From assembly GCA_902787305.1 (NCBI GenBank), contig CADAFS010000004.1, positions 5,582 through 69,581 on the forward strand: a stretch of DNA of 64,000 nt, read 5' to 3'. The stretch's first letter is position 1; every line of letters begins with the position of its first letter. Below, piece after piece: positions 10,076-62,147 of this stretch. The position numbers and the translations under genes were made by a program. Source of the DNA: an uncultured Pseudomonadota bacterium. GTDB lineage: Bacteria; Pseudomonadota; Alphaproteobacteria; Rs-D84. The notes under the pieces were generated by a model. That model ran no database searches. It saw only the letters and a program-made list of their open reading frames with translations, and was not told the origin of the DNA.

Positions 10076-10082
10076 TATCAAT

Positions 10083-10414: not shown

Positions 10415-10441
10415 AATTTTTATGCAATTGGGGGGCGCATT

Positions 10442-11410: not shown

Positions 11411-11412
11411 AT

Positions 11413-11441: not shown

Positions 11442-11471
11442 TTGACCCGATTCGGTGATTTTTGATATAAT
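11442..11471 (+). promoter_or_regulatory. sigma-70-like promoter of fibre gene A
   Basis: TTGACC (11442-47), 18-nt spacer, TATAAT (11466-71). The CTTGACCCGATTCG block is shared with the upstream region of gene B (44693-44706). Confidence 0.55.
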
Positions 11472-11732
11472 AAATTTGAATCAGATGGGAATCTGGTTCG
11501 GGGCATTAGCGTGCCTTTACACGGTCGGTGCAAAGCATCGTAATCCATTGAAAGAATTCCAGATGTTTTTGCACCGTTATTGTATTTCCCCGATTTTGGT
11601 CGGGGTGTGTCGGTTATAAAACAGGCCTTGCCAAAATCCGACAGATCATTACTGTGTATGATACGCTAACCCCCGACCGCTTGTTTTCCAACGCGGTTTT
11701 TTCATAACAACAAACAAAATGGAGAGGACACA
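11472..11732 (+). promoter_or_regulatory. long structured 5' leader with terminator-like hairpin (possible attenuator or riboswitch)
   Basis: About 260 nt between the -10 box and the ATG. Long-range stem cggtgcaaa/tttgcaccg and hairpin ccccga..tcgggg. Terminator-like accgcttg..caacgcggt plus T6 lies about 30 nt before the SD. An upstream ggtcgggg can pair instead with ccccgacc. Confidence 0.4.
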
Positions 11733-13350: not shown

Positions 13351-13527
13351 ATTCCAGAACCGCGTCACGCCGCCGAAGGGCGGTGCCCAGGCCGAACGTA
13401 GTGAGGACTTGCCCCGCAGGGGATTTTTCATCGCAAGGCGATGAAAAACTTGGATGTCTGCGACGCAAGTTTTTGCATTCGCAAAAACTGGACCCCGCGC
13501 TTCCGCGGGGTGACGCCTTTCTGGAAT
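13351..13527. repeat. hairpin-mosaic element E2' with attccaga/tctggaat termini
   Basis: Intergenic copy of the element found inside gene A. Consists of a chain of short hairpins with GCA, GAAG/CTTC and AAG loops. Confidence 0.85.
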
Positions 13528-24164: not shown

Positions 24165-24257
24165 AAAAATTTCAAATTGCCATTATTACCCTATTGACTT
24201 TTTTTTATAAAAGGTGCTAGGATTCAGGCGGATTAGTAAAATCAAAGGAGAAAACAC

Positions 24258-24635
24258 ATGAAAAAAATACTTATCTATGGTGTCGCGGTCGCCGCTATTG
24301 CGGGATGTTCGGCAAAGGAAGAAACAAAAGAAGTCAAGGTTTTTGATGCATCTTGTGAAAAGGTCGCCGTTTTCGAACAGGGCGATATGATTGTGAAATG
24401 CCCGACCAATGAAACATTGTCTTCGTTGCAAGACCAAACCCCAACTGGTATGTTTGTTCAAGGCGAAGGTTTCGATTTTGCCAGCGCGGCCGCGGATGCG
24501 GAACATGTCTATGTGAACGTTATTCCGGCGGGCGCGTATGAATGGGCGACATATAAAGAATACCGCATAATGGTGAAAAATCCGGTTATGGATGAAAATT
24601 CCCTTTATACCGTTAGCGTTGTGGTTCAAGAATAA
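24258..24635 (+). CDS. small lipoprotein
   Basis: SD aaaggaga; lipobox AIAGC at residues 15-19. Confidence 0.6.
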   Translation: MKKILIYGVAVAAIAGCSAKEETKEVKVFDASCEKVAVFEQGDMIVKCPTNETLSSLQDQTPTGMFVQGEGFDFASAAADAEHVYVNVIPAGAYEWATYKEYRIMVKNPVMDENSLYTVSVVVQE

Positions 24636-24653
24636 TTGAATTTTTGTGTAATG

Positions 24654-24682
24654 AAAAACCATCGGTTTTCCGATGGTTTTTT
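24654..24682. terminator. bidirectional intrinsic terminator
   Basis: aaaaaccatcgg-ttttc-cgatggtttttt between convergent genes. Confidence 0.7.
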
Positions 24683-24696
24683 ATTGTGTAAAAATT

Positions 24697-25230
24697 TTAT
24701 TTTCCCAACAATTCAACACATTCCTTGGTCAACACTTTTAATTGGTCTTCTATTTCCCGACCGTGGTTATAGTATTCGGTTATTTGTTCGATACTAAGGT
24801 TTTCAAACATTTTGTTTGCCGCGCATTTGCAATACTCTGACGCTATACCCAACCCAGCCCCAGATTCCATCGCGCTTTCGACACATTGTTCTGTTATTGC
24901 CGATATAATTTGTTCTTTGGTATCAGAATCTGGCGAATCTAATAATATACCGACACATTCTTTGGCCGAAAGTTCCATCAACTGTTCAATCGTACGCCCA
25001 TGTTTATAGTATTCGGTTATTTGTTCCACAGATAATTCAGATACAACCTTTAACAAAACACAATTACAGTAATCCGAAGCCATTCCAAGTCCGGCACCAT
25101 CTTCCACCATACTATCAACGCATTCTTCCATCGCAGAATCAACAAATTCACGTCCAATTTCAGAATCTGGGCTTACCGCAAATGCCCCGGTACAAGCCAT
25201 CATAATAAATAAAGCAAAGATTTTTTTCAT
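24697..25230 (-). CDS. secreted Cys-containing protein made of two tandem ~75-aa repeats
   Basis: Signal peptide MKKIFALFIMMACTGAFA. Repeats share ...GAGLG[MI]AS[DE]YC.C....LS[VI]EQITEYY.HGR.IE...KECV. Confidence 0.6.
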   Translation of the reverse strand: MKKIFALFIMMACTGAFAVSPDSEIGREFVDSAMEECVDSMVEDGAGLGMASDYCNCVLLKVVSELSVEQITEYYKHGRTIEQLMELSAKECVGILLDSPDSDTKEQIISAITEQCVESAMESGAGLGIASEYCKCAANKMFENLSIEQITEYYNHGREIEDQLKVLTKECVELLGK

Positions 25231-25525
25231 AATTCCCCCCTTTATGTGCCAAGTGTATTATTTTTAATTATGTTTGGTCAATATAAAGTTGCAAAAAATT
25301 CGAAATTGGAATATAATCACAATGTGTCAGAAAGGAGTAAAAAATGCTAACCCTTATATTTGTGATATTAAAACTAACAAACGTGTTAAATTGTTCTTGG
25401 TGGTGGATTGTTTTAACATTGTTATTGGATTTTGGTGTTATACGGATTTTGTAATTGCCACAATAAAACCACAGGGCCCGCGCACGACGGGTCTTTTTTC
25501 AGCATAGATTTAAAAGGGGAATTTT

Positions 25526-25804
25526 ATGAATAATTTTTTAGGCGAAATCGTGGGTTATTTATCTGGTGTTTGCACGACACTGGCATTTTTACCCCAGGCA
25601 ATAAAGTCCATTACCACAAAAAACGTGTCGGGCCTTTCCCTGTATATGTATATCATATATTGCATGGGGTTGGTGTTTTGGATTCTTTACGGTGTGTATT
25701 TGCATTCATTTCAAATAATGTTGTTCAACAGCATTACACTGGTGTTCAATGGAATAATACTATACATGATAATTAAATCCAATTCGAAGAATAAGAAAAA
25801 ATAG
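25526..25804 (+). CDS. SemiSWEET / PQ-loop family transporter
   Basis: 92 aa, three TM helices, LPQ motif in TM1 (TLAFLPQAIKS). Confidence 0.7.
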   Translation: MNNFLGEIVGYLSGVCTTLAFLPQAIKSITTKNVSGLSLYMYIIYCMGLVFWILYGVYLHSFQIMLFNSITLVFNGIILYMIIKSNSKNKKK

Positions 25805-25870
25805 AGAAAATAGGATGTTGATTTTTTAATATATTGTTTTTACAATAAGAACACATCAAGGAGAAATTGT

Positions 25871-26677
25871 ATGAAAAAACTTATTGCCTTAATCTCGGCA
25901 TTATTTTTATCAGCATGTAATGAAAATGACAATGTTGCAATCAACCAAATGAACATAACTACTCGACCACTAACGGCAGAAGAATCATGGGAAAATATTT
26001 TACACAATCATGATATGTATTACAGCGAACTTAAACAATTTTATCCAGAGGTTGATACTTTTATTCCTTTCCCTGGCAATAAAGATATGGAATCTATGTA
26101 CAATAAAGAGGTGTTAACAACCAAAGAAATTGAAAAATATCGTAATATTGTTATAAATGAACTTTATGATATTAAAACATTAAATCGTTTAGACAATGTG
26201 TTTCAACAATATGTAATACCCGAATTACAAAATAAAACAAATGAATATTTAGTGTCGTTATTATCATCATGGAATACACAATTACCAGAAAAATTAGAAA
26301 TATTTTATTTTTACGACTATGGCAGTTATTATAATTATCCAATAAATGGTGTTGCATCAATATATTTTGGTGTAAACAACCCTTCGTTTAGCGCAGACAA
26401 TCCGTTTGATGATAAAGATAAAATATTTAGTTTGGTATTTCATGAATTCATACATACTTTAATAGAAATACCAATAATTCGTGAATACGGTGTTCCGCAA
26501 GATTTAAAAGAACGCATAGTTGATTTGATTTGTTATGAATTTATAAAACGGCCAGTTCAAAAAGATTTTGAAAATTCTTTTGCAAATGCATATATAACCC
26601 CAGATGTGATAAGAACCGATTTGCCCGGTGCAGTTAAAAAAATGATGAAAGATTACAAGGCAGCACAGAAAAAATGA
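25871..26677 (+). CDS. lipoprotein with HExxH (putative zinc metallopeptidase)
   Basis: Lipobox LSAC; VFHEFIHTLIE motif; AT-rich. Confidence 0.5.
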   Translation: MKKLIALISALFLSACNENDNVAINQMNITTRPLTAEESWENILHNHDMYYSELKQFYPEVDTFIPFPGNKDMESMYNKEVLTTKEIEKYRNIVINELYDIKTLNRLDNVFQQYVIPELQNKTNEYLVSLLSSWNTQLPEKLEIFYFYDYGSYYNYPINGVASIYFGVNNPSFSADNPFDDKDKIFSLVFHEFIHTLIEIPIIREYGVPQDLKERIVDLICYEFIKRPVQKDFENSFANAYITPDVIRTDLPGAVKKMMKDYKAAQKK

Positions 26678-26772
26678 TAATAAACTGTTCGAAAATTGGT
26701 AAAAATTAACATGTTTCAGACATGTTATTTTCGAACTGCTCGAATAATATAAAATCCAACAAAAAACCGCAC

Positions 26773-26814
26773 TGTTAAAGTGCGGTGTATCTTTTGGTGG
26801 GAGTATGCTTGCAC
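26773..26814. repeat. 42-bp direct repeat, distal copy (includes a 10-nt pseudo-3' end of tRNA-Tyr)
   Basis: aaaaccgcactgttaaagtgcggtgtatcttttggtgggagt; one mismatch versus 28818-28859. Confidence 0.85.
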
Positions 26815-26961
26815 TAATCGAGCAGAAAACAAACAAGAATTTTCTGATTTAATGCAAGAAGTGAAGCTGTTTAAAGAAAAGTGGTTATGATTTCACCCAT
26901 GGGTGAAATTTGACTGACTTTTTATTTCATGGTACAATAGTAGACAGTAAAAGGATAAACG

Positions 26962-27390
26962 ATGAGAAAACTTTTCGTATTATTTACATTTGTTGTACTT
27001 TGTGGTTGTGTAGGAAGTCAAGATTCGGCAACAAAAAAACAAACTCAGTTGTGTCAGGAGGCCGGTTTAGAATTTAATACTGAAGAATGTTCAAAATATA
27101 TAATAGAACTAGAGAAACGTTTATTAGAAGAACAACAAAAACAGATACAGGAAAGAAATAAAAATTGGTGTGCGGAAGTTGGACTAAAGTTTAATACATC
27201 AGAGTGTGCTCAATATATAATCAATAAAGAAAATCAAATAATGCAAAACGAGAATCAACGCGAACAAATAGATGTATTGAAACAATCTAACAAAATTCAA
27301 GAAAGAGCAATAAAATGTAGAGGCATAAAAGGCAATTCAGGATATGGTGATTGGGGTAATTCTTTTATGCGTGGATTCTATGGATGTTAA
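26962..27390 (+). CDS. small lipoprotein with internal duplication
   Basis: Lipobox LCGC; repeats CQEAGLEFNTEECSKYII / CAEVGLKFNTSECAQYII. Confidence 0.55.
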   Translation: MRKLFVLFTFVVLCGCVGSQDSATKKQTQLCQEAGLEFNTEECSKYIIELEKRLLEEQQKQIQERNKNWCAEVGLKFNTSECAQYIINKENQIMQNENQREQIDVLKQSNKIQERAIKCRGIKGNSGYGDWGNSFMRGFYGC

Positions 27391-27443
27391 TATAAAATAC
27401 TTGATAAACTTGAATAAACAAAAAGGTTAGATTTCTAACCTTT

Positions 27444-28562
27444 TTATAATCCCATCTCAATAATATCTATATATTCTTTGTAAGCATATATTCGATAACG
27501 TTGTTTATTATTTATTTGAACCAAAATCCCTTCAGATTCTAATTTTTTTACCAAAGTGTTTGCTGTTGCATTTGTTACACCAAGTTCTTCTTGTAATTCT
27601 TTAATTGTAATAACAGGATTATTCAATAAAATATCAAAAGCTTTGATAGCTGTTCCTGTTTGTAATCGAGCTCTGTCTCTGTTTTCTAAAGCAATAATTC
27701 TTTTTGTGGTTGTCATTGTTTGTTCTGAAACAGCAATAACCCCCTCTAAGAAGAAGCGTATCCACTGAATATAATCACCTGTATCCCGAACTTTTGTTAA
27801 TGAAGAATAATACTCATTTTGTTTCTTCTTTAAATACAAACTTATGTATAAAGTTGGCGAATAAAGAATTTCTTTATCTATTAAAAATAACAATATCAAT
27901 AACCTACCTATACGACCATTACCATCTTGGAAAGGGTGTAATGTTTCAAACTGATAATGAATCAATGCTGCTTTTATCAAATTAGGATGAATGCCTTGAT
28001 GAATATAATTTTCAATATCATTCATATAAACATCAATATCGGTTGCAACAGGTGGTACATATACAGCATCAGATGGACCTGTGCCACCAATCCAATTTTG
28101 TGATGTTCTAAATTCGCCAGGAGTTTTAAACTGTTCGCCTCCACGAACACCAGACATTAAAACCCTGTGACACATACGTAATAATCGTCCAGACAAAGGA
28201 AGCCCTTTGGGGTTTTGTAAACTATCAACCCCAAAAGTTAATGCTTTAAAATAATTTCTTACTTCCATAACATCTACATTGGAAGGTTTTGAACCTTCTT
28301 TTTCTAAAATCTCAACCAATGTAGATTGGGTGCCTTCTATTTGAGAAGACAATAAAGATTCTTTTAAAGCATACCTTTCTGTTAATAATTTAGGATTTGG
28401 CAACATTTTTTCCAAAGCTCTTAATTCTCCGACAGCTAAATTTGCACGATCAACCAGAGCTTGTATATCAGATAAGTCCAAATCTTTTTCAATAACATTT
28501 AACTTTTCTGGCACAAAAGCTTTGTAGCCTTTCCCTGTTTCTATATAATTTCCACTGTTCAT
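27444..28562 (-). CDS. Fic-family protein (AMPylase-type) with intramolecular inhibitory motif
   Basis: Fic motif HPFQDGNGRIGRLL. N-terminal SSQIEGT matches the [ST]xxxE[GN] inhibitory helix. C-terminal wHTH-like tail. Confidence 0.85.
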   Translation of the reverse strand: MNSGNYIETGKGYKAFVPEKLNVIEKDLDLSDIQALVDRANLAVGELRALEKMLPNPKLLTERYALKESLLSSQIEGTQSTLVEILEKEGSKPSNVDVMEVRNYFKALTFGVDSLQNPKGLPLSGRLLRMCHRVLMSGVRGGEQFKTPGEFRTSQNWIGGTGPSDAVYVPPVATDIDVYMNDIENYIHQGIHPNLIKAALIHYQFETLHPFQDGNGRIGRLLILLFLIDKEILYSPTLYISLYLKKKQNEYYSSLTKVRDTGDYIQWIRFFLEGVIAVSEQTMTTTKRIIALENRDRARLQTGTAIKAFDILLNNPVITIKELQEELGVTNATANTLVKKLESEGILVQINNKQRYRIYAYKEYIDIIEMGL

Positions 28563-28817
28563 AACAACCTCTTTTTTATCATGTTTTATTATAATTACGA
28601 GTACAACATAACAAAATAATTATAAAAAATCAACAAAAATTATAATTAAAAAGTTTTTGTTGTAAGTAATTATACCAATCTATAATTATGCAAACAAACA
28701 GTCAAAAAAGTGTTGGATTTCTAACATTTTTTTACAACACTGTTCGAAGATTGGTGAAAAACGGTGTTTTTTGGATATGCTTTCTTCGAACCATTAAAAG
28801 TATTGTAAATCTAAAAG

Positions 28818-28859
28818 AAAACCGCACTTTTAAAGTGCGGTGTATCTTTTGGTGGGAGT
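28818..28859. repeat. 42-bp direct repeat, tRNA-proximal copy
   Basis: aaaaccgcacttttaaagtgcggtgtatcttttggtgggagt; 28850-28859 is the real 3' end of tRNA-Tyr. Confidence 0.85.
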
Positions 28860-28936
28860 GGGTGGATTCGAACCACCTCAGGCTTAAGCCAACAGATTTA
28901 CAGTCTGCCCCGGCTCTCCAACTCCGGCGCACGCCC
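28850..28936 (-). tRNA. tRNA-Tyr (GTA), long variable arm
   Basis: Anticodon arm GCAGA-CTGTAAA-TCTGT, variable stem GGCTT/AAGCC, T-arm GGTGG-TTCGAAT-CCACC, encoded CCA. A C4:U69 mismatch and C at position 8 are atypical. Confidence 0.7.
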
Positions 28937-28992
28937 GATCTCTAACCTGCCCGTCTCTGTGTGCTTCGCACACTCCGCCGCGGCACAGGATT

Positions 28993-29026
28993 TTCTTAAT
29001 TGTGCGCGCTGCGCGCAATAACGAAA
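28993..29026. repeat. conserved tRNA-trailing hairpin (copy 2)
   Basis: ttcttaattgtgcgcgctgcgcgcaataacgaaa directly 3' of tRNA-Gly. Confidence 0.75.
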
Positions 29027-29031
29027 ATCCG

Positions 29032-29106
29032 TGGTGCGGGCAGCGGGACTCGAACCCGCATATCAAGCTTGGAAGGCTTGCGTACTAGCCCTTGTACTAT
29101 GCCCGC
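29032..29106 (-). tRNA. tRNA-Gly (TCC)
   Basis: Acceptor GCGGGCA/TGCCCGC, D-stem GTAC/GTAC, anticodon loop CTTCCAA, T-arm GCGGG-TTCGAGT-CCCGC, encoded CCA. Confidence 0.85.
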
Positions 29107-39748: not shown

Positions 39749-42175
39749 CTAAAACACAATCGGCGGGAAACAATCACCACCCGTATTCGGACAGCAATTA
39801 AACCCTTGGTCACCCATGTCGGTGTATGTTTCACCCGGACAGCATCCATTGACATCCGGATTCGCGCCACCATCACATGTGATAACAGATGTGTTTTGCT
39901 GTTGCGCCGGCGCGGCGGGCGTTTCCTTTTTGAACGGATTCTTTATAGTGCCATCCGCATTATATTCAAGTCCAAGAACCTGGGTATTATAGTCAACGGT
40001 ATTCGCACCTGTGGTATAATCTGTTTTCTGCACACCCATTTGTTGCTGGTTTTGGAACACCGCTTCTTGCCGTGCATTATTGATTGCGGTATATGTCCCA
40101 AATGAACGACAATAGAAATCAAGCGTCGCAAAACTATAATTTCTACAAATCTCCACATCATTCCAATTGCTTACAGGCACAGATGCTTTTTGTCCTGTTG
40201 GGGCGGTGCAACATCTTTCCTGTAATGAAGCCTGCATCATGGAACGAACCTGACCAATAAGTTCTTCCATATCTGTACTTGGGGTTATGTTATTGGCGGC
40301 CGTTCTCCAATTCGCGCGGTTCTCACCACCTGTACCATCCGCTGCCTTGGTTTGGTATGGTCTTATTGCACACGCCTTACCCGGTTGATCACCACACGTC
40401 ACAAATAAATCAACCGGCGAAAATACGGTAATACGTGTGCCCGCGGCAATTGAAAAAGGCGGTGTTGTATTATTCATAACATCAACCAATAATTTTGTCG
40501 CAACATTATTCCATGCGGTGATAATTTCATTCTTGGCCAGTTCGGATGAACGCACCGTTCCGCTTTGAACAACGGTATTATTATCCAAATCAATCTGATT
40601 CACAAATGCATCGGACACCGGTGCAATCAAATTTACCGCCGCCGGCACAATAGCGGTCAGCATTGGCATAATAAATTGTTGCAAATAATCCGTACTGCCG
40701 TGCCCGGGGACACCCTTGCGTCCTTGGGAATCCGCCGAAAACGGACGTTGGTTATCTTTTGTAAAATTAAACTCAACCCCATCGGGACGAATAAATTGAT
40801 ACCATTCTATTTGCATACGACCAACGGCCTTGTATGGCCCTGGCAAATTCCCCGTCACATACCCCAGCATCAATGTCCCAGTTGGAATAATCACTGTGCG
40901 ACCGTTATCGGAATAAACATTCCTATCCACCGTTGCACGCACCGGAAGACCATTCGTTAACATCTCTGCATCCGCTTGAACATCCGAAACAATTGTCGCC
41001 GGAATTGGTTTATATTGACGCAACACAAATGTCCGGTCATATGGCATAGATGAAAATACACCGTCACTTGCACCAGACCCAAGATACGTTTCTTCTTTGA
41101 CCTTGTTCGGTGTCAACTCCAGTTTTTTCATTCCGCCCATGCCGCTCGATTGCCGCTCGGCAACCAAGGCGTTCAGTTCCGCATCCGTCAATTGCCGTGC
41201 CCGATTCCCGCGTTTCTTTACCGAACGCGCGCCCAATGCGGGTAATTGGTCCGTAATGGTCAAACGAATATGTTCCGCATCCGACCCAATACGCCGCGCC
41301 GGATTATTTATATCCATAATATAACCCGTATCCGGATTATAAATTCCGGTCGGCGTTTTACAATTCACATCGGAAAACGGGTGATAGTAATACGCACCGC
41401 CGTCGGGCCTTATCCAACCCGCATGTACGCCGGATATATTGTATCCCGGAAAAGAAAATTCCGAACAACCCGCGCCCGACGTCGAACCCGTGGGCGTTGC
41501 GGCAACCGTTGGATCCGGCCAATCATATGTCGGCATTTGCGTATTATTAAAATCAAATTCCGGCGAAATATCGTCCACATCTTTTTCAAAATCATACGTC
41601 GGTTCCGGTTCAAAAATCGGGTCCGGTTCATATGTCGGTTCGGGTTCCGGCGCGGGTTGTATCTTTAACGGTTCACGCGCACCAATAACAATAGTAATTG
41701 CGTTTGGTTCGTCACGTTCCACGCCCGTGGCAAAGTCTGTCCATTTAATCGCAACATCAACATTGGTAATGGTAATTGGATGTTCGGGTTCGTATTTCAA
41801 CCGTATTTTGCACGGCATATCCGCATCGATAATAGTATTTTCATTTGTGCATGTTTCGGTTGCCGAAATTCCCGCGGCATCGGTCGTATCACCATCAACC
41901 ACAACATTTACATCCGTCACCTGGACACGGGTATTTGCCGACACAGTATATTCAATTTCGCGCGATTCACCAACATCCGTATCAACCCAGTCAATCGGTT
42001 CATTCGGCGACACAATCAGTTCCGGCGTGACCGCCACCGGTGAATCAACGATCTCAACCTTTTTTGTATCCTTGCCCCGCGTTAGCATCACGAACAACGC
42101 AACCACAACAATGATTGCCACAATAAGCAAGAACCATTGCAACCCACGCGGCGAAGAATCATTTTCCATACTCAT
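39749..42175 (-). CDS. virB10: T4SS core component VirB10/TrbI, extended form
   Basis: N-terminal TM (WFLLIVAIIVVVALFVML), Pro-rich PAPEPEPTYEPDPIFEPEP, and TrbI/VirB10 beta-barrel region (IPATIVSD...VIIPTGTLMLGYV...RMQIEWYQFIRPDGVEF...). ATG 42175 has SD aagggga. Confidence 0.8.
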   Translation of the reverse strand: MSMENDSSPRGLQWFLLIVAIIVVVALFVMLTRGKDTKKVEIVDSPVAVTPELIVSPNEPIDWVDTDVGESREIEYTVSANTRVQVTDVNVVVDGDTTDAAGISATETCTNENTIIDADMPCKIRLKYEPEHPITITNVDVAIKWTDFATGVERDEPNAITIVIGAREPLKIQPAPEPEPTYEPDPIFEPEPTYDFEKDVDDISPEFDFNNTQMPTYDWPDPTVAATPTGSTSGAGCSEFSFPGYNISGVHAGWIRPDGGAYYYHPFSDVNCKTPTGIYNPDTGYIMDINNPARRIGSDAEHIRLTITDQLPALGARSVKKRGNRARQLTDAELNALVAERQSSGMGGMKKLELTPNKVKEETYLGSGASDGVFSSMPYDRTFVLRQYKPIPATIVSDVQADAEMLTNGLPVRATVDRNVYSDNGRTVIIPTGTLMLGYVTGNLPGPYKAVGRMQIEWYQFIRPDGVEFNFTKDNQRPFSADSQGRKGVPGHGSTDYLQQFIMPMLTAIVPAAVNLIAPVSDAFVNQIDLDNNTVVQSGTVRSSELAKNEIITAWNNVATKLLVDVMNNTTPPFSIAAGTRITVFSPVDLFVTCGDQPGKACAIRPYQTKAADGTGGENRANWRTAANNITPSTDMEELIGQVRSMMQASLQERCCTAPTGQKASVPVSNWNDVEICRNYSFATLDFYCRSFGTYTAINNARQEAVFQNQQQMGVQKTDYTTGANTVDYNTQVLGLEYNADGTIKNPFKKETPAAPAQQQNTSVITCDGGANPDVNGCCPGETYTDMGDQGFNCCPNTGGDCFPPIVF

Positions 42176-42197
42176 TACCAATTCCCCTTAAAAAACA

Positions 42198-43748
42198 TTA
42201 CTGTATGCGAACCACCTGGCAACTGGCGCCACTAAACTTTAACAATTGGTCACACAATTGCTGCGCGGTATCAATATCCGGCATCGGCCCGATACGCAAC
42301 CGATACAGCCGCGCCGCCGAAGATGTCGCCCCAAGTTCGCCAACGCCTTCTTCGTCAACGGCATAAAACACGCTGTCTTTATATTTATTCAATAATCCTT
42401 TGCCGTCATTACCACTGAATCGTGCAACCAATCCGGCCCAGTATTCATCCAATGCCTTGACACTGCTGTCCGACCGCAATTCAACGGCGACACCACCTTG
42501 GTTGCTGGTAATAAGTGGTATATTCGAATTCGGCAAATAAGACCCCGCGGTCACGCGTTCGGTTGGCATCATACTTATGCCACGCGTGCCATTGCCCAGG
42601 GCGGGCGCATCATACGTGCCATACATCATCGTGCCCGTATTCATCGGCATCGCCGGCATGGTCGGCAACACCGCGGCATTTGGCACATTGCTAATATACG
42701 TCGGACTTGCGGTAAGGTTTCCGTACCCCGCATTTATCGCGGTCATATTGTCGGCATAAATCATATTATTTAATGAATTGCCCGACATCATACTTTGCGC
42801 AACATTCGCCTCGGCCAATGCCATCACACTTGCGGTGTCGGCAATCAAGAACGGCTTTGCGCGCTTTTTAATACATACAATGCGTTGTCCACTGCGCAGA
42901 ACCATATCGCCCACGGCCTCTACAATAAGCAACCGACCATCTTGACCATCGGTGCGGAACCCGACCGGCGATTCGCCGCCTTCGACCAACAACGACACCA
43001 CGGGACGTTGCGTCATTGAAATAACCTTGTCGCCAAAGTCAATATACGTGAACACACGGTCACGCCATACGCGTTCCGGCGCAATTACATAGTCGTCCGG
43101 ATTTGGAACAAAAATATCCAAATCGAAACGGAATTCCGACGGGTCAATCTTCATTGTTTTAATCCAATCGTAATCTTCGCCATCGACACCGATGCTGGTG
43201 CTTTTCGTATTTGTGTTTTTAAATATGGAATTCATCGACCCGCCACTTGGTGCGGTTGCCGCGCCCGCCATGGGCAAACGGGCATTGCCATCCAAAACAA
43301 CATCAACCTGGGAATAGGTAATTTCGGACGCGTTCGACGGTTCACTGCGCAGATAGAAAGTATAAACATTTCCCGACTTTCCCGTCACAATCAAATTTGT
43401 ATCCGACCCCATATTGTCCGGCGCGGGTGTAATGTAAAGCGTCCGCCCGCCTTGATTTCCATTGATTTGAAAGAACCCTTCGTTTCCGACAACCGCGTCT
43501 TCAATCTGTTCGCCCTTTGGCAAGTTTACCATCGTCACCATACCATTACGCAATTTCACCGGCAACACAGTCCCCGGTTCCCACGCAAGTTGTGCGTATC
43601 CGGGTTTCAAACTGCCACTTGCCATATTGGCGTTTGGATTATCCCACGCGGCCTGAACACCCCAGTTTCCGTCCAACGGCGCCGCCCACGCACCAGATGC
43701 GACAACACATGCGCAAATTGCAAATCTAAAAATCCAAAGTGCTTTCAT
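42198..43748 (-). CDS. virB9: T4SS core component VirB9/TrbG fused to a C-terminal SPOR domain
   Basis: Signal peptide and a VirB9-like N and C domain (NLIVTGKSGNVYTFYLRS...). C-terminal ...LYRLRIGPMPDIDTAQQLCDQLLKFSGASCQVVRIQ is SPOR-like. Confidence 0.75.
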   Translation of the reverse strand: MKALWIFRFAICACVVASGAWAAPLDGNWGVQAAWDNPNANMASGSLKPGYAQLAWEPGTVLPVKLRNGMVTMVNLPKGEQIEDAVVGNEGFFQINGNQGGRTLYITPAPDNMGSDTNLIVTGKSGNVYTFYLRSEPSNASEITYSQVDVVLDGNARLPMAGAATAPSGGSMNSIFKNTNTKSTSIGVDGEDYDWIKTMKIDPSEFRFDLDIFVPNPDDYVIAPERVWRDRVFTYIDFGDKVISMTQRPVVSLLVEGGESPVGFRTDGQDGRLLIVEAVGDMVLRSGQRIVCIKKRAKPFLIADTASVMALAEANVAQSMMSGNSLNNMIYADNMTAINAGYGNLTASPTYISNVPNAAVLPTMPAMPMNTGTMMYGTYDAPALGNGTRGISMMPTERVTAGSYLPNSNIPLITSNQGGVAVELRSDSSVKALDEYWAGLVARFSGNDGKGLLNKYKDSVFYAVDEEGVGELGATSSAARLYRLRIGPMPDIDTAQQLCDQLLKFSGASCQVVRIQ

Positions 43749-43773: not shown

Positions 43774-44430
43774 TTATTTTGATATCCAATTCAACGGGTC
43801 GTTCCCATTCAACACCGTGTATTCCATGACTTTCAGTCCCAACGGATTGTTTAGCCGCTCCACCCAATCAATAATCCTGTCGTTATCCTTGGCCAAAACA
43901 ACACGAATCTTATAGTCCTTTTTATTTGTCGGCCCACTGTTTGATTCACAGTAATATCGTATCGTCACGGTATATGTGTCTTCCTTTAATACCAACGGCG
44001 CACCAATAAATGTGACGGGGCATGTAAACGCAAAGTCCGGATAGTCACCAATAATTGCGTTATACATATCGGTCTGTGTGAATGCCTTGTAAACCGCGGG
44101 CGTGGACCACATTGCAACAACGCCACCTTCGTTACCCCACTTGCGCCGCATAATGGAAGTATTGCGTTCCACTTCGTTCCGGGCGCGGACATATTCCATA
44201 ACGAACGCCTTTTTATATTCGTCCACGTTTTCATCACTTGCCGGCAATTCAGTAATTTGAATACTTGATGAATTTGCGGGCTTGGTCGTGATAAAGAAAA
44301 TTTCGGGTCGATTTAGTGGAAACATTTTCCCCAGTGTCATAAACAATACAAACAGCACCACCGCCATTCCGGCGAATACAAACACAACCAATCTGGACAG
44401 CAAAACAGGCGGTTCTATGCGGTGTTGCAA
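43774..44430 (-). CDS. virB8: T4SS component VirB8
   Basis: Single N-terminal TM, NTF2-like periplasmic domain, C-terminal NNPLGLKVMEYTV motif. Start taken as TTG 44430, preceded by taggagagg; the maximal ORF extends to TTG 44481. Confidence 0.75.
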   Translation of the reverse strand: MQHRIEPPVLLSRLVVFVFAGMAVVLFVLFMTLGKMFPLNRPEIFFITTKPANSSSIQITELPASDENVDEYKKAFVMEYVRARNEVERNTSIMRRKWGNEGGVVAMWSTPAVYKAFTQTDMYNAIIGDYPDFAFTCPVTFIGAPLVLKEDTYTVTIRYYCESNSGPTNKKDYKIRVVLAKDNDRIIDWVERLNNPLGLKVMEYTVLNGNDPLNWISK

Positions 44431-44660: not shown

Positions 44661-44802
44661 TAAAAATTTTTTCCAAAAAAATGAAAAAAGCACTTGACCC
44701 GATTCGACGAAATTTAGTAGCCTGGTATTAAAGAAATAGTTGTGTTTGTGTGCAAACGCACGGAAACCGGGCTTTTCGGGGCGAAAGGAAGGGAACGAAA
44801 AC

Positions 44803-47322
44803 ATGAAGTTTTTAACGTCGAGAGTTGTTGTATCTGCGATAGCGTCGTTTATTGCGTTTGCAATTGTGCCCGCGATTGCCACCACGCCAGAGGCCGATTT
44901 CAAAACTGTGACGTCCAAGGCATATGTTGATTCATTGATATCCAATAATGATATTTCGGGTCACAAGGTTAATGGCGCGCCATTATCAAATGCGGCATCA
45001 TACTTTTATGGCGAAGGTGTTGGTGCGGCGGACACGGCAACCAAGACGGTTAGCATACCGTCAATAACCGGCACGCCCGCGGTTGGTCAGGTCATTGTTG
45101 TCAAGCCGGCAACAACGAATACCGCATCAACGATGAAGATAAATTTAAACAACACGACGGCATACAGCGTTTTGTATAGGGGCAGTTCTAGCAATATCCC
45201 AAAGGATGTTTGGACGGCATATGTTCCGTCGATATTCGTTTTGGATGTGTCCAGTGGAACAAAATATTGGCGTTATGTCGGGACATCACCGGTGGCGATG
45301 ACATGGTCTGCAACCGAAACTGCCGCGGCCAATGCGTACAGTACTACATTTGACGGCACGACCGGAAATTGGCCGGTGGCGGATGAAAATAAATACGTCA
45401 AGGGTGATTCATTTGCCCAAGGTCTTGCATTGAAACAAAATAAGTTGCCTGCAAAATCCACCGGGAATGCGGCCCCAAAAGGAAATCAGGCCGTTGTATT
45501 GAATACCGCTGGGAATCCATCAAATGTTTACACGACCGCGGGTAAAGATTTGGCGTTAACCGCAAAATCCGGTGCGCAAAAAGTTATGAACTATATTGAT
45601 GGGACAACGGCATCCGCCACGTTTGCAACCAGTCAAGGCCTTACCGAAGCACTGGTTAAATCCGCACTTGTTTCATTGGAACTGCTGAAAGATGTGTATA
45701 GTGAACTGAATTCTAAAATTACGAACAATGCCCTGCCGACGGGGACGGCCGGTACGGTTGTGACATATAACGGAACCAATCCACAAACCGGTGTCCAACA
45801 ATTTACCGAAACCGCTATTGTGGATGCACCGGTATATACAAACGGGGATTTAACAAATGGGGATTCTTTGCCGTCGGTTGAATATGTCGAAGATGCGCTT
45901 GCCACAAAGCAGCCGATAATTCAACCGTCAACCGTTAATGGCAAAACACAAATTGTGGTAAAACCGGCATATGGTGGAACCGCCGGCAATATTGGGTATT
46001 TAACATTGGATACGGCAAGTTTGACAAGTAATAATAGTTATGTTCCGTCTTCAAAATTGGTTGCGGATAGTTTGTTGTCGAAAATGGATAAAAGGGACGC
46101 GTGGTCCGTGGACCAGGCTACAGGTGAGCTTTATAATGATTCAAATGGTGCGCTAACATCTGTATCGTATTTATACCAGGTCCCTGGAATGGCGGATTCT
46201 GGGACGCGGTGGGCAAAAGATGCGATGATCTATTGGGGCGACGAAAAAATTGTTCCGACGATGGATACGTTGGCGGTGTCGCTTACTGGGGTTTTTGACG
46301 CGCTTGATAAACGTATCCAAAATTACCCAGAGGCCAGTGATTATATTAGAGGCCAATCTGTCAAAAGTCCAAGCCAAATTGAATATACCTATGCGCCAAC
46401 ACTTACCGATGGGGCACAGTTGTTTTGGTTGCCATCTCTTGCAAAGGCGGGGGATGAAAAAGCGGATTTTTTACTGGGTGTGTACCAAAAAGAAAAAATC
46501 GTTCCGACCATGGATGAATTGGCGCATGCATTGGATGGTGTTTTGCAAACCCATGAAACCACCAGAGAATGGCAAGCTGTCTTACCTTATTACGGTCTTC
46601 GTGAAATGTCTCTTTTTGAACTTGCAGATATGATTAATATCTCTAACGCTAATGCTATATTACTTAATAGAAGTGGTTATTTGCAAACATTTGCCCCAAC
46701 ATTAGAGGCATTGATGAACGAATCATATGGGTTATACCGATTGATAGATACAAAACAAAATAAATTATCCGGTACCAATGGCGCCCTGGTCACGTATGGT
46801 GCGACCGCGGGTCAAACCGGTTCCAAAGCGATTGCAACCAGTATAAGTAATAATGCCAATACGATACCAAATACGGCGGCGGTTTACAATGCTGTAAATG
46901 CGCGACAAAATGTAATCCCGGTTGCCGGTAAATATCGTTCATCAAACACTATAACAACCGACACAGACATATCTGATTGGACCGCTACAAATATCAAGGG
47001 AACTGCACTGGTGACCAAACCAACGTCGGCAAACGGTGTTGTTGGCGAACGCAAGATTTTCGAAGCCGGCGATACATATACAAACGATGCCGCAACAAAT
47101 ATACAAATCGCGACGATAGGCGCGGTTATGGAAAACATAGAAAACACGGTCACAAAAAGATGCGTCGGATATAAACCCGGTACAAGTGTTCAAAATGCCG
47201 AAAATTGTTGGCTTTGGGAATTTGTAGGCAATTCTGCAAGTTGCATCGCTACAGGTGGATCGTGTACGAATAATAGCGAATGTTGTTCGGGAACCTGTGG
47301 TGTCGGGGGGCAATGTAATTAA
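44803..47322 (+). CDS. KAYVD-family exported tail-fibre-like protein B with C-terminal six-Cys knot
   Basis: SD aaaggaaggg before ATG 44803. Signal peptide ...IVPAIATTPEA and KTVTSKAYVDS. Repeated xPxxxxVxxxL...KQ(D/N)K units, ALVSLELLKDVYS, neck CVGYKPGTSVQNAENCWLWEF and terminal CIATGGSCTNNSECCSGTCGVGGQCN. Confidence 0.8.
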   Translation: MKFLTSRVVVSAIASFIAFAIVPAIATTPEADFKTVTSKAYVDSLISNNDISGHKVNGAPLSNAASYFYGEGVGAADTATKTVSIPSITGTPAVGQVIVVKPATTNTASTMKINLNNTTAYSVLYRGSSSNIPKDVWTAYVPSIFVLDVSSGTKYWRYVGTSPVAMTWSATETAAANAYSTTFDGTTGNWPVADENKYVKGDSFAQGLALKQNKLPAKSTGNAAPKGNQAVVLNTAGNPSNVYTTAGKDLALTAKSGAQKVMNYIDGTTASATFATSQGLTEALVKSALVSLELLKDVYSELNSKITNNALPTGTAGTVVTYNGTNPQTGVQQFTETAIVDAPVYTNGDLTNGDSLPSVEYVEDALATKQPIIQPSTVNGKTQIVVKPAYGGTAGNIGYLTLDTASLTSNNSYVPSSKLVADSLLSKMDKRDAWSVDQATGELYNDSNGALTSVSYLYQVPGMADSGTRWAKDAMIYWGDEKIVPTMDTLAVSLTGVFDALDKRIQNYPEASDYIRGQSVKSPSQIEYTYAPTLTDGAQLFWLPSLAKAGDEKADFLLGVYQKEKIVPTMDELAHALDGVLQTHETTREWQAVLPYYGLREMSLFELADMINISNANAILLNRSGYLQTFAPTLEALMNESYGLYRLIDTKQNKLSGTNGALVTYGATAGQTGSKAIATSISNNANTIPNTAAVYNAVNARQNVIPVAGKYRSSNTITTDTDISDWTATNIKGTALVTKPTSANGVVGERKIFEAGDTYTNDAATNIQIATIGAVMENIENTVTKRCVGYKPGTSVQNAENCWLWEFVGNSASCIATGGSCTNNSECCSGTCGVGGQCN

Positions 47323-47499: not shown

Positions 47500-47573
47500 A
47501 GGGGCATGGTTCAATGGTAGAACATCGGTCTCCAAAACCGCGGATGAGGGTTCGATTCCTTCTGCCCCTGCCA
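47500..47573 (+). tRNA. tRNA-Trp (CCA)
   Basis: Acceptor AGGGGCA/TGCCCCT, anticodon loop CTCCAAA, T-loop TTCGATT; classic position upstream of secE-nusG. Confidence 0.9.
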
Positions 47574-47624: not shown

Positions 47625-47804
47625 ATGAAAAAAATAATGGAATTTATACGTGGGGTGCGGGCCGAATGGTTCAAAATTACATGGCCAACCCGGGCGGATG
47701 TCGTGCGTGCAACAATCATGATTATTGTGTTTTCTGCACTTGCGGCGTTATTCTTTTTTGTGGTGGACAGTATCTTAAACGCACTGGTTGGGTGGATTTT
47801 CTAA
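47625..47804 (+). CDS. secE: preprotein translocase subunit SecE
   Basis: MKKIMEFIRGVRAEWFKITWPTR... followed by a single TM; position tRNA-Trp-secE-nusG. Confidence 0.85.
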   Translation: MKKIMEFIRGVRAEWFKITWPTRADVVRATIMIIVFSALAALFFFVVDSILNALVGWIF

Positions 47805-47829
47805 AACGATTTGCCAAGGGGAATGCATA

Positions 47830-48363
47830 ATGGATGATAAAATGCAATGGTTTGTTGTAAATGTTCATACGGGCTGTGAAGACAAGGTCGCACGCAGTAT
47901 GCGCGAACAGATTGATAAACGCCGCCTTAATGCGTATTTTGGCGAAATTATGGTACCAACGCGCGAAATTACCGAAATCAAGGGCGGTAAACGGGTCAAG
48001 GTTGATAAAAAATTCTTTCCGGGCTATATCGTTGTGCAAATGATTATGAACAACGAAACCTTTTCGTTGGTGAAGTTGTTGCCACATGTAATTATGTTTC
48101 TGGGGGCGCGGCAAAAACCAATCGCGGTTAGTGAAGAAGAGGCGCGTCGCCTTATTAAACAGGTAGAAGAGGGCAGCACCGTTCCCGATGACATCACATA
48201 CGATGTCGGCCAAGAAGTCCATGTTATCGATGGGCCTTTTGCGAACTTTAACGGTGTTATATCCGAAGTTGACAATGTAAAACAAAAAATGACCGTGAAC
48301 ATTTTGGTCTTTGGCCGCGAAACAAGTGTTGCGCTTGATTTCGAACAGGTCGAACGGGTTTAA
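47830..48363 (+). CDS. nusG: transcription termination/antitermination factor NusG
   Basis: NGN domain WFVVNVHTGCE and KOW motif GQEVHVIDGPFANFNGVISEV. Confidence 0.9.
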   Translation: MDDKMQWFVVNVHTGCEDKVARSMREQIDKRRLNAYFGEIMVPTREITEIKGGKRVKVDKKFFPGYIVVQMIMNNETFSLVKLLPHVIMFLGARQKPIAVSEEEARRLIKQVEEGSTVPDDITYDVGQEVHVIDGPFANFNGVISEVDNVKQKMTVNILVFGRETSVALDFEQVERV

Positions 48364-48466
48364 CCGATTTTGTAAAATCGGCGGGCGTGTGCAAGGCGCG
48401 CAAAAAAACAAATCGTGGTGGATGCGCCACATCGAACCACGAATCCAAAAACAAAAAGGATGAAAA

Positions 48467-48898
48467 ATGGCAAAAAAAGAACTAAAGGGGATTGTTAAAC
48501 TGGTTGTCCCCGCAAAACAGGCAAATCCTGCGCCACCAATCGGGCCGGCGTTGGGTGCGGCGGGTGTGAATATCGCCGAATTCTGCAAACAATTTAACGA
48601 CAAAACGTCTGACAAAGAACCGGGTATGCCGATTCCGTGCATTATTACCGTCTATACGGACCGCAGTTTCGAATTCATTATGAAATTGCCGCCGGTTTCG
48701 TATTATATTAAAAAGGCGTTGAAATTGAAAATCGGTTCTCATAAACCGGGTCGTGATTTCGTTGGCACCATTACCAAGGCGCAAATCAAAGAAATCGCGG
48801 AAAACAAAATGCCGGATTTGAATTGCTCTACCATTGAATCTGCGATGAATATCGTTGCGGGTCAGTGCCGTTCAATGGGCGTCAAGGTGGAGGATTAA
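48467..48898 (+). CDS. rplK: 50S ribosomal protein L11
   Basis: [20 protein letters not shown] signature. Confidence 0.95.
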
Positions 48899-54944: not shown

Positions 54945-55022
54945 GTGTTAGTGCAAGTGGTTAGTGGTTAGTAAAAAAATACTAACCATCACTAACCACT
55001 AACACTAACCACTAACACTAAA
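54945..55022. repeat. imperfect inverted repeat built from heptamer units (H6) in the rpoB-rpoC spacer
   Basis: gtgttagtgcaagtggttagtggttagt - aaaaaaat - actaaccatcactaaccactaacactaaccactaacactaaac. Confidence 0.8.
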
Positions 55023-60705: not shown

Positions 60706-61656
60706 TTACATATCAGGCCCGGCGGTAAATGTTCCGGTTCCGGCGTTTTCTTTAAATGTTCCGCTTACGGTATCATACATACCTAACACATCGTCGCTGT
60801 TACGACGCGCGGGGACAAGGTTTTGGACCAAGTTCCCATTTTCATTAATGCGCCATGAATATACATAACCTTCAAACCTAAAATATGCGTCGCCACCAAT
60901 CCATAACGGATTAGTGCCAGAAAAATCAGGAACATCACCATTGTATGAATATCCTGTATTATCAAACGTCACACCATTTCTGTTTTGAATAATTTTATGT
61001 TTCGTATTCAAAGAAGTTGTAAAAATGGTGCTTCGCCCGTTCATATTGGCGGTCCCGCCACTACCATTAATATTGTAATACATTCCATTAAAAGACGAAG
61101 TTGACCCCGATGTGCTGTATGCCATTTTACTGCCAGCTTTGGCCAACATTTCCATTTGTAGTTCTGTATTAGAAGACGGAAGAACTTCGGTATTAATCCA
61201 CTGGTTTCCTGTAAATTCAATGTATTCAAGATGTGTATAACCACTTGGTAACATATCCCCATACGCTGTTTGATCGACGATGGTCCACAGGGTGCAGGCC
61301 GGGCTGTTCGCGCATTCCAATTTTGTTGTTGGGGTTGTTGGTAAATTCGTAAATGTCGCATTTAACGCCGATGCGGTAATAAGTTTATCGCCGTCTGTGC
61401 TTGCATCATAATTGCTGATGTCCGAATACAGGCCGCGTTCACCAATTTGGCCATTTCCGGTCGCGGTATACGTCATTACCGTTTCACCCGCACCAACATT
61501 CGGTTGACCCGCCGCGGGGATTTTTAACTGCTTCGTTTCTATCTTCGTATCAACATACGCCTTTGATGCAACGGTTTTCATATCATCTTCGGCATGCGCA
61601 ACATTGGTTATCGCAGTAATCACAAATATCAATGCCAATAATATCTTTTTTAACAT
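60706..61656 (-). CDS. KAYVD-family exported fibre-like protein C with a globular C-terminal domain
   Basis: Signal peptide ...ITNVAHA, KTVASKAYVDTKIETKQLKIPAAG and neck CANSPACTLWTI. These are followed by LEYIEFTGNQWINT...LGMYDTVSGTFKENAGTGTFTAGP. Confidence 0.75.
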   Translation of the reverse strand: MLKKILLALIFVITAITNVAHAEDDMKTVASKAYVDTKIETKQLKIPAAGQPNVGAGETVMTYTATGNGQIGERGLYSDISNYDASTDGDKLITASALNATFTNLPTTPTTKLECANSPACTLWTIVDQTAYGDMLPSGYTHLEYIEFTGNQWINTEVLPSSNTELQMEMLAKAGSKMAYSTSGSTSSFNGMYYNINGSGGTANMNGRSTIFTTSLNTKHKIIQNRNGVTFDNTGYSYNGDVPDFSGTNPLWIGGDAYFRFEGYVYSWRINENGNLVQNLVPARRNSDDVLGMYDTVSGTFKENAGTGTFTAGPDM

Positions 61657-61697: not shown

Positions 61698-62147
61698 CTA
61701 ATTACTAGTCCCGGTATTACTGTTACTATTATTACCGTTGCTGTTTCTGCCATATACTTGTTGATCTTCAATGGTCCATAAACTGCATGTACCCGGATTC
61801 GCACAGGTCAATTTTGATGTTTCCATTGTGGGCAAGCTTGTGACACTGCCCTTTAATGCCGATGCGGTCACCAATTTATTTCCGTCCGTTCCCGCGGTAT
61901 AACTTGTTGGGTCACTGTATATCCCGCGTTCACCGATTGTTCCGTTTCCAGTTGTTGTATACATCACAACCGCCGTTCCGGCGTTCGCGCTGTTTGTTCC
62001 CGCGGCCGGGATTTTTTCTTGTCGTGTTTCAACCGATGTATCAACGTATGCCTTGGACGATACAGTCTTACGGTCGGTTGATGTCGTTTCCGCATACGCG
62101 GTGCCAATCATAACAATTCCGCACAACAATAAATTTCCGATTCGCAT
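61698..62147 (-). CDS. KAYVD-family exported fibre-like protein D (stalk and neck only, N/S tail)
   Basis: SD aaggagag; signal ...GTAYA, KTVSSKAYVDTSVETRQEKIPAAG, neck CANPGTCSLWTI. Ends in NSNGNNSNSNTGTSN. Confidence 0.7.
   Translation of the reverse strand: MRIGNLLLCGIVMIGTAYAETTSTDRKTVSSKAYVDTSVETRQEKIPAAGTNSANAGTAVVMYTTTGNGTIGERGIYSDPTSYTAGTDGNKLVTASALKGSVTSLPTMETSKLTCANPGTCSLWTIEDQQVYGRNSNGNNSNSNTGTSN

Follow-up and report, generated by a model that had tools for sequence, protein, structure and literature searches.

Bdellovibrio bacteriovorus encodes mosaic adhesive trimer (MAT) fibres in 21 genes, and these surface-displayed proteins have a signal peptide and combine an N-terminal end that is conserved with tips that vary; a conserved beta-rich N-terminal domain of ~130 aa comes right after the signal peptide, and the fibre is an intertwined trimer (PMC10769870). 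In this study, four genes, called A, B, C and D, were analyzed in a 64,000-nucleotide stretch of contig CADAFS010000004.1 from an uncultured alphaproteobacterium of the Rs-D84 lineage (the whole stretch is hereafter the window). By analogy, the MAT repertoire appears to be the closest functional analogue of the family formed by these four proteins and their relatives. Judged from sequence features, structural models and this analogy, A–D rather probably represent a lineage-specific expanded family of Sec-exported, disulfide-stapled adhesive fibres for attaching to partner cells.

Enterousia falls within the GTDB order Rs-D84 and has genomes of <1 Mb. An obligately symbiotic or parasitic life has been proposed for the Rs-D84/Enterousia bacteria, in which respiration, a complete glycolysis and most biosynthetic pathways are missing (PMC12306168). 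Rs-D84 and Candidatus Enterousia are widespread in the guts of ruminants, horses and chickens, and are also found in termites, including flagellate-free ones (PMC12306168, PMC11257099).

Architecture common to the four proteins

The four proteins are encoded at the following positions.

11733–12905, plus strand: A, an A-type fibre protein (390-aa open reading frame, ORF)
44803–47322, plus strand: B, a B-type fibre protein of 839 aa
60706–61656, minus strand: C, a C-type fibre protein of 316 aa
61698–62147, minus strand: D, a D-type protein of 149 aa

All four ORFs are open over these coordinates, and their translations match the description in an earlier reading of the bare sequence (hereafter the original prediction). 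Its observation that A–D have one architecture in common, namely a signal peptide, the motif K-T-V-x-S-K-A-Y-V-D, a stalk and a two-Cys neck of the form C..C.LW, was confirmed. A degenerate DNA pattern for the motif had four matches in the window, one per ORF, with none expected from 100 shuffles, and a six-frame scan of the window with a relaxed motif combined with C..C.[LIVMF]W returned A–D and no other ORF. The repeat units quoted in the original prediction, the six-Cys tail of B, the N/S tail of D and the ~190-aa tip of C were all present as well. The elements of this architecture are placed as follows.

~11967–12011, plus strand: signal-peptide core and SFA|E site of A (translation and paralog alignment)
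12033–12062, plus strand: motif of A (pattern match)
12837–12890, plus strand: neck of A, CAGYEPGHENAPDYCWLW (translation); the protein ends 4 aa after it
44803–44880, plus strand: signal peptide of B, aa 1–26, ending at 44880 (signal-peptide heuristics)
44902–44931, plus strand: motif of B, KTVTSKAYVD (pattern match)
47161–47217, plus strand: Cys neck of B, aa 787–805 (translation)
aa 1–22, minus strand: signal peptide of C (signal-peptide heuristics)
61549–61578, minus strand: motif of C (pattern match)
61285–61314, minus strand: neck of C, CANSPACTLW, aa 115–124 (translation)
aa 1–19, minus strand: signal peptide of D (signal-peptide heuristics)
62040–62069, minus strand: motif of D (pattern match)

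Pairwise alignments established that the homology among the four ORFs is real. D matches C at 56% identity over 135 aa (E 1e-46), and A and B align in three colinear blocks, consisting of the N-terminal motif, the ALVSLELLKDVYS block that both proteins contain (E 6e-18) and the neck (E 1e-7). D further aligns with the last module of B (residues 676–807, E 1e-6), so that D is essentially a signal peptide with one fibre module and a neck; it is built of that module, the neck CANPGTCSLW and an N/S-rich tail. The only stretches common to all four subtypes are the motif of ~10–20 aa at the mature N-terminus and the two-Cys C..C.LW neck. The cysteines after the motif are strictly paired: A, C and D each have two, and B has two and a further six.

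A Sec-type signal peptide had been assigned to each of the four proteins. This held for B, C and D, in which a canonical n-h-c organization was found, with one or two basic residues, an uncharged core of 13–22 residues and the sites AIA|T, AHA|E and AYA|E, respectively, whereas in A the hydrophobic core and the SFA|E site lie ~78 aa downstream of the start, an ATG at 11733 that is preceded by a ribosome-binding site (RBS).

Distribution of the family

The motif was scanned for in one genome per species, covering 185,579 species genomes. The exact motif was found at 67 loci with 77 matches, and 76 of the 77 fell in about nine rumen or gut metagenome-assembled genomes (MAGs) that bear the label Alphaproteobacteria bacterium or Candidatus Enterousia; the MAGs with the most copies had 28, 14, 13 and 11. 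The lone match outside, in an Anaerolineae genome (L033), was rejected as a chance match because it has neither signal peptide nor neck. Thus, the family is restricted to the Rs-D84/Enterousia group. The housekeeping proteins of the window are 94–99.7% identical to those of the MAG RUG774 and of an Enterousia sp. MAG.

Protein searches returned 56 relatives of B and 326 of C, while D matched 177 clusters (50% identity) among 1.84 billion representative proteins. In nearly all relatives an N-terminal signal peptide is present and xV[TA]S[KRQ]xYVD comes a few residues behind it, and the C..C.LW neck was present in 108 of the 131 proteins that the D search added to the earlier searches. The relatives sort into four subtypes, which correspond to A, B, C and D. 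In the window D precedes C, both on the minus strand and 41 nt apart, and two motif matches ~455–490 bp apart, which is the D–C spacing of the window, occurred in at least eight related loci, where the ORFs that were read encode a D-type and a C-type protein. A fifth copy of the window's contig, C-type, lies ~6 kb beyond the left end of the window and adjoins nusA-infB. Literature searches covering both motif and lineage turned up no paper on the fibre family.

Chromosomal positions of the genes

The genes A–D and their relatives are host chromosomal genes and not prophage genes. The window itself is chromosomal, containing uvrD, gyrA, lptF/G, lptD, rlmN, yidC, rplKAJL, rpoBC and plsX, and in it A is flanked by an IMPase gene and gyrA, B by virB8 and tRNA-secE-nusG, and the C/D pair by plsX and a radical-SAM gene. 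These positions are retained in other genomes. The position of A between the IMPase gene and gyrA was kept in L019 and L060, and an A-type gene adjoins gyrA in L009 and L025; likewise, B-type genes lie between virB8 and tRNA-secE-nusG in relatives, even at a fibre identity of 31%.

Consistent with the original prediction, no capsid, terminase or integrase gene was detected among the window ORFs scanned. Its concern that the family might prove to be ordinary tail-fibre genes of intact prophages in relatives was not borne out in general, since the copies hold their housekeeping positions across species and are not in prophages; however, one D-C pair in relatives lies ~1.4 kb from a podovirus-like module, which is absent from the window and is described below. 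Searching B and C by tblastn against 50,697 deposited GenBank phage genomes gave no match.

Exchangeable tips and phage tail-protein ancestry

The features of C and B on which this part is based are as follows.

60709–61254, minus strand: LamG/ConA-like (laminin G/concanavalin A-like) jelly-roll tip of C, aa 135–316 (AlphaFold2 (AF2), Foldseek)
44965–45282, plus strand: phage-fibre-like beta domain of B, ~aa 55–160 (homology, AF2)
47242–47316, plus strand: six-Cys knottin-like tail of B, aa 814–838 (C814–C838; translation)

The exchange of tips is clearest in the C-type proteins, whose first 114 residues are ~90% identical across proteins that carry at least five unrelated tip classes after the neck. 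One of these, ...GMYDTVSGxFFTNxGTGDFxAGP, is that of the window's C; three more are represented by ...ExGSTATPYEPYY, ...LAFRAAVFNSVQ and ...FDLTEIFGAGNEP, and others exist beyond these four. Therefore, the heads that had been proposed to be swappable are borne out for the C-type, in which one conserved N-terminal module is joined to unrelated tips.

In the AF2 model, residues 135–316 of C form a beta-sandwich (predicted local distance difference test, pLDDT, >90) that also folds confidently alone, and the neck region forms a hairpin both in C (111–128) and in B (783–809). Foldseek searches of the PDB with the C tip matched laminin G, agrin, neurexin LNS and pentraxins (E 7e-5 to 1e-3, target-normalised TM-score 0.5–0.6), with no detectable sequence similarity between the tip and solved structures. 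Against BFVD, the matches were predicted structures from uncultured phages (Siphoviridae sp. and Myoviridae sp.) with E 3e-15 to 9e-11, and the root-mean-square deviation was 2.4–2.6 Å over ~185 residues for three of the four best. When the C tip alone was used as query, proteins of 200–320 aa that have no signal peptide were found at 28–35% identity, and two of the tip matches, P0316 and P0332, are both encoded within tail modules of phages, directly ahead of the holin and endolysin genes.

A comparable relation was found at the other end of B, to which the database protein P0001 is identical. Residues 25–148 of B align at 45% identity (E 4e-22) with the C-terminal part of the phage fibre P0052, a protein of 1,235 aa without signal peptide and with a PF12789 domain, whose gene lies in a phage contig alongside holin, integrase, ERF and reverse transcriptase genes. 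In the AF2 monomer model, residues 60–160 of B reached a pLDDT of 87–92. Homology to phage fibres was thus found at the level of single domains, in B 25–148 with P0052 and in the C tip with P0316 and P0332, and these alignments and models support the conclusion that parts of the fibre proteins have phage tail-protein ancestry. A Foldseek match of the full-length B model to a baseplate/tail-fibre chain of Pseudomonas phage Pa193 in the PDB (E 0.029) was too weak to be used. As a side observation, the P0052 gene (L072, 10001–17668) lies 2.6 kb upstream of an RVT_1 reverse-transcriptase gene on its integrase-bearing contig, and this neighbour may be a diversity-generating retroelement acting on P0052.

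The tail of B has the framework C-x6-C-x5-CC-x3-C-x5-C, which is conserved in B orthologues. Its C-terminal 30 aa matched in the PDB exclusively inhibitor cystine knot (ICK) venom and conotoxin peptides, at marginal E-values of 0.02–0.2, and the Pfam matches were below threshold.

Insertion in gene A, promoter box and leader RNA

Upstream of and within A, and upstream of B, the following elements were found.

11442–11471, plus strand: promoter TTGACC-18-TATAAT upstream of A (near-consensus sigma-70, score 11/12, TG extension)
~11478–11715, plus strand: structured leader RNA of ~240 nt, ending in a terminator-like hairpin and a U-run just before the RBS and ATG of A
11754–11966, plus strand: in-frame repeat insertion in A (paralog alignment)
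44693–44706, plus strand: promoter-associated box CTTGACCCGATTCG upstream of B, holding a −35-like TTGACC

In the window's copy of A, a palindromic repeat of ~210 nt is inserted in frame within the signal-peptide coding region, between MKKI... and the hydrophobic core, where the alignment of intact A paralogs gives MKKIFILSSLIAVTLATPSFA|EPTELDK. A-type proteins end directly behind the neck, the stalk being their variable part, and at the DNA level the A paralogs are near-identical at the 5′ end (promoter, leader, signal peptide and motif) and at the 3′ end (neck). With respect to the repeat itself, a second copy was seen in the A-gyrA spacer (13363–13512, 87% identity). The element is dispersed and is translated as ...YRRRPVSR...WIPAFAGMT, and in relatives about half of the A-type paralogs have this element or a different repeat inserted there (FPSREGWRVAPAGVW, PSWKEGER); the in-frame repeat of A resembles the Rickettsia palindromic elements, which are also in frame.

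The 14-mer CTTGACCCGATTCG has two copies in the window, upstream of A and of B only. Counting the window and the related loci, the 14-mer occurs 17 times, and 16 of these copies precede a family motif by 200–700 nt in the same orientation; the genes concerned are A-type and B-type.

The leader of A was compared among 10 leaders from several genomes by RNAalifold, and the consensus contained 41 pairs, of which 14 showed compensatory changes. In the alignment, 95.6% of cells were paired vs. 33–48% in slid controls, and the covariation score was 0.383 vs. ≤0.087 in those controls, with 0 of 500 shuffles reaching the observed value. The window copy folds into the consensus structure with a minimum free energy z of −5.4. 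Rfam contained no family for the A leader, and the search of the whole window gave four tRNAs and otherwise sub-threshold noise only. A 16-nt anchor of the leader occurred 19 times in 0.5 Mb of loci, and in 18 cases it preceded a family gene by 237–650 nt (16 A-type and two D-type). The leader RNA is hence a candidate new riboswitch, attenuator or small RNA dedicated to the fibre family.

Proposed mode of action

Taken together, sequence, models and comparative genomics support the view that A–D are domesticated exported fibres with swappable heads and phage-fibre ancestry. The features observed suggest the following course. The proteins would be exported by Sec and then cut by signal peptidase I at the AxA-type site, which would leave a mature N-terminus starting within ~0–12 residues of the (K)TVxSKxYVD motif. 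In the oxidizing periplasm, the neck cysteines would form a disulfide that staples the beta-hairpin C..C.LW collar, as the paired cysteines and the AF2 hairpins suggest, and in B six further cysteines would form a knottin-like tip. The T/G/N/A-rich stalk, made of [IV]P..(A)V...L..KQ.K units like those of phage fibres, would assemble into a long homo-oligomer, which is probably trimeric. Of its two ends, the conserved N-terminal one would be proximal to the cell and the variable one would serve as the ligand-binding head, which may be the LamG-like lectin tip in C, the knottin in B and the variable stalk in A. A repertoire of 11–28 or more copies per genome, as in the four richest MAGs, could provide many specificities for binding to partner or host cells and possibly antigenic variation, and tips may have been exchanged with phage receptor-binding proteins, with the near-identical ends of paralogs adding to the diversity.

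Several points weigh against this reading. Because a 78-aa insertion precedes the signal-peptide core, A as encoded may be non-exported or inactive. Since A-type proteins have no distinct tip after the neck, swappable heads in the strict sense are those of the C-type and the small knot of B. The signal peptides were judged by rule-based inspection only, and no outer-membrane export or anchoring route for A–D was identified. Sequence-family searches of A–D in Pfam, PHROGs, NCBIfam and the PDB, by sequence and by profile, returned nothing meaningful and back no named function. In AF2 monomer models, the ~90-aa module that C and D have in common stayed at a pLDDT of <50, and the stalk of B was modelled with only moderate confidence; such low values would fit an obligate oligomer but do not speak for one.

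Gene neighbourhood of B and the type IV secretion system

The genes next to B belong to a type IV secretion system (T4SS), and the original identification of virB8-virB9-virB10 was correct by Pfam.

39749–42181, minus strand: virB10 (Pfam TrbI, 810 aa)
42198–43748, minus strand: virB9/CagX with a SPOR domain (Pfam CagX/SPOR)
43774–44430 or 44481, minus strand: virB8 (Pfam VirB8), divergent from B

This neighbourhood raises the alternative that the fibres are coupled to the T4SS, with VirB8-9-10 passing them, once exported by Sec, over the outer membrane or mounting them as an adhesin or a substitute for a pilus, at minimum in the case of B. The arrangement in which B is the divergent neighbour of virB8-virB9-virB10 was kept in at least four other genomes (L002, L008, L043 and L075), and, as originally noted, no VirB2/VirB5-like gene was detected among the window ORFs tested. 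VirB10 is also unusually long (810 aa), with a Cys-rich C-terminal tail (CDGG...CCPGE...CCPNTGGDC). The Bordetella Ptl T4SS exports a periplasmic substrate that is Sec-dependent and disulfide-bonded, and in Bartonella adhesion by the Trw T4SS relies on surface subunits that have been amplified; by analogy, a Ptl-like two-step export route of the fibres is conceivable, though the present findings do not support it.

However, the local gene order is conserved as a whole block, running yidC...virB10-9-8, B, secE-nusG-rplKAJL-rpoBC, and the adjacency of B and virB8 is therefore not specific evidence. B lies outside the virB operon, divergent from virB8; between prfA and lon there is another, more distantly related B-like gene, which has no virB gene in its vicinity, and the other family copies whose neighbours were checked stand beside housekeeping genes, most of them away from virB genes. 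The ~320-bp spacer that B had been said to use as a control region in common with the T4SS operon is indeed 321–372 bp of intergenic sequence, depending on the virB8 start, but CTTGACCCGATTCG does not recur upstream of virB8 in the window or in the related loci, while it does recur with A. Furthermore, A–D showed no similarity to VirB2 or VirB5 in Pfam and NCBIfam, and their sizes (149–839 aa) and architecture are unlike either. Thus, of the hypothesis in the original prediction, a host-owned set of exported fibre- or adhesin-like proteins with swappable heads is supported, whereas the working link to the T4SS is not, the conserved adjacency being part of a block order, the box not being that of virB8 and most other copies examined lying away from virB genes. 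We regard T4SS-coupled fibres as unlikely.

Some further observations were made around this system. The SPOR domain of VirB9 is a peptidoglycan-binding domain and lies C-terminally. virB10 is followed by two small ORFs without family match, which are not virB11/virD4; they were tried as pilins and rejected, having no hydrophobic segments and no family matches. Five consecutive polytopic membrane proteins of 405–523 aa with K-rich C-termini are encoded at 2895–9490 (four ORFs on the minus strand and one on the plus strand). They are weakly similar to each other (E 8e-4) and matched nothing in Pfam or NCBIfam even at lenient thresholds; given this weak paralogy and the want of Pfam/NCBIfam support, they are not claimed as VirB6-like paralogs.

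Other alternatives and significance

Instead of adhering, the proteins might be secreted effectors, i.e., soluble toxins, bacteriocin-like molecules or lectin decoys against phages or competitors. The ICK-like framework of the B tail, with its PDB matches confined to venom peptides and conotoxins, would suit such a role, no anchoring domain (lipobox, beta-barrel or LPXTG) was found in A–D by Pfam scan and sequence inspection, and domains like those of phage receptor-binding proteins could in principle compete with phages for receptors. On the other hand, the invariant part is the extreme mature N-terminus and the variability lies at the opposite end, as in anchored phage fibres and MAT proteins (PMC10769870) and unlike in toxins. 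Moreover, Pfam, PHROGs and NCBIfam searches detected no catalytic or toxin domain in A–D, and the knottin match is marginal and limited to the B-type. Non-adhesive effectors are accordingly very unlikely.

The podovirus-like module mentioned above raises the further alternative of tail fibres or receptor-binding proteins of a phage-derived particle, be it a domesticated podovirus, an element like a gene transfer agent or a cryptic prophage. The module was met through the single IMG/VR match of the motif, a 13.4-kb contig (L071/L063, scaffold_2008, with the module at 537–10955) that is listed there as viral; as an independent phage this match was rejected because the contig belongs to the RUG774 MAG itself. 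Beside a C-type gene (~1.4 kb away), this contig carries, in order, o139, lipB, an endolysin-like ORF, a T7-type scaffold, capsid, tail tubular proteins A and B, an internal virion protein and the large terminase. The capsid is 47% identical to that of Pelagibacter phage EXVC031P, whose annotation holds hypothetical proteins only. The module is interleaved with lipB and dnaB, the large terminase is split by a dnaB-carrying segment, and no portal was detected in this T7/HTVC010P-like module. In a second species (L022, 3284–8000), the scaffold, capsid and tubular A proteins are 90–93% identical at the aa level, being as conserved as RplA or LipB, and they stand next to a D-C pair; the dnaB-TerL-C junction also occurs in a third species (L014, 226–2608). 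The module in relatives has either been domesticated or is a remnant that selection has preserved.

Although this linkage in three species and the homology of the fibre modules to phage fibre proteins speak for particle fibres, that explanation is highly improbable, being contradicted by the Sec signal peptide on every family member examined, which virion proteins assembled in the cytoplasm do not have, and by the housekeeping surroundings of the other examined copies (only one locus of ~80 copies is near phage genes, and the five copies of the window's contig lie beside gyrA, virB8/nusG, plsX and nusA), as well as by the interrupted state of the module and the empty search of phage genomes with B and C.

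The favoured reading of A–D as exported adhesive fibres may be carried further, to a picture in which Rs-D84/Enterousia are episymbionts or micropredators whose 10–30 phage-derived, Sec-exported fibres would form a partner-capture apparatus. The fibres would take a Ptl-like two-step route via the neighbouring VirB system, which lacks pilins; the new riboswitch-like leader would gate the expression of A-type and some D-type genes, and paralogs would be diversified by recombination between near-identical ends and by tip exchange with phages. As a whole, this extended picture is quite unlikely.

The fibre family takes a noticeable share of genomes of <1 Mb and looks like a receptor-binding toolkit, which makes it the most concrete available lead to the attachment targets of Rs-D84 cells. 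It would extend the idea of a repertoire of cell-owned, phage-fibre-like adhesins, of which MAT was characterized in 2024, to an unrelated phylum with a different anchor motif, and the leader RNA is in itself a candidate new cis-regulatory element. We rate the interest of the family as moderate to high, because it gives a concrete handle on the lifestyle of a widespread gut lineage with reduced genomes.

Other features of the window

The motif CACTAACCACTA and its reverse complement occurred 13 times in the window, vs. 0.1 expected, at the following sites.

10083–10113
11140–11151
11380–11411
31204
44495
44627
54955–55014
59302

The sites inspected lay between genes, where inverted pairs of the motif often bracket elements of the spacer, and they included both sides of the virB8-B spacer and a place upstream of A.

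A low-GC stretch at ~24000–29100 (GC 0.30–0.37 vs. ~0.45 elsewhere) contains a Fic/DOC-HTH gene (27444–28562) and unannotated ORFs, with two tRNA genes (28853–29106) at its right edge, and is possibly a horizontally acquired islet. Another tRNA gene (47500–47570) lies directly downstream of B, ahead of secE-nusG. The 306-aa ORF on the minus strand at 47722–48642, antisense to nusG, is probably not a gene.

Comparison with known systems

The phage tail fibres and receptor-binding proteins are related to A–D by local homology, repetitive T/G/N/A-rich stalks and modular tip exchange. The A–D family differs from them in its Sec signal peptides, its paired cysteines, its conserved positions among housekeeping genes and the lack of any match in the phage genomes searched.

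Bartonella Trw and Bordetella Ptl likewise join amplified, variable surface proteins and a T4SS in a host-dependent bacterium, and the Ptl substrate is Sec-dependent and disulfide-bonded. Compared with these systems, A–D have no VirB2/VirB5 homology, lie outside the virB operon with most copies unlinked to it, and do not have their promoter element in common with virB8. Trimeric autotransporter adhesins differ in their YadA-like C-terminal beta-barrel, which was not in the Pfam scan of A–D, where the proteins end in a neck, a knottin-like tail, an N/S tail or a LamG-like tip.

In its modelled fold, the C tip agrees with LamG/ConA-like domains such as those of laminin G, neurexin LNS and pentraxins. 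It differs from them in having no sequence similarity to solved structures, and its nearest relatives are proteins of uncultured phages rather than eukaryotic LamG domains.

With the MAT fibres of Bdellovibrio, which were compared by description only, the differences are that the conserved element here is ~10–20 aa plus the neck vs. the MAT domain of ~130 aa, that Peptidase_S74, present in a subset of MAT, was not matched in A–D even at E up to 1, and that the hosts are from different phyla, the present family being known from sequence, models and gene context. Since the conserved N-terminal element is far shorter and the S74 domain is lacking, membership in MAT is not claimed. What both have in common is a chromosomal multi-copy repertoire with a signal peptide, phage-tail-fibre ancestry and one conserved end, in a contact-dependent organism, together with variable, independently folding C-terminal tips that include lectin-type folds.

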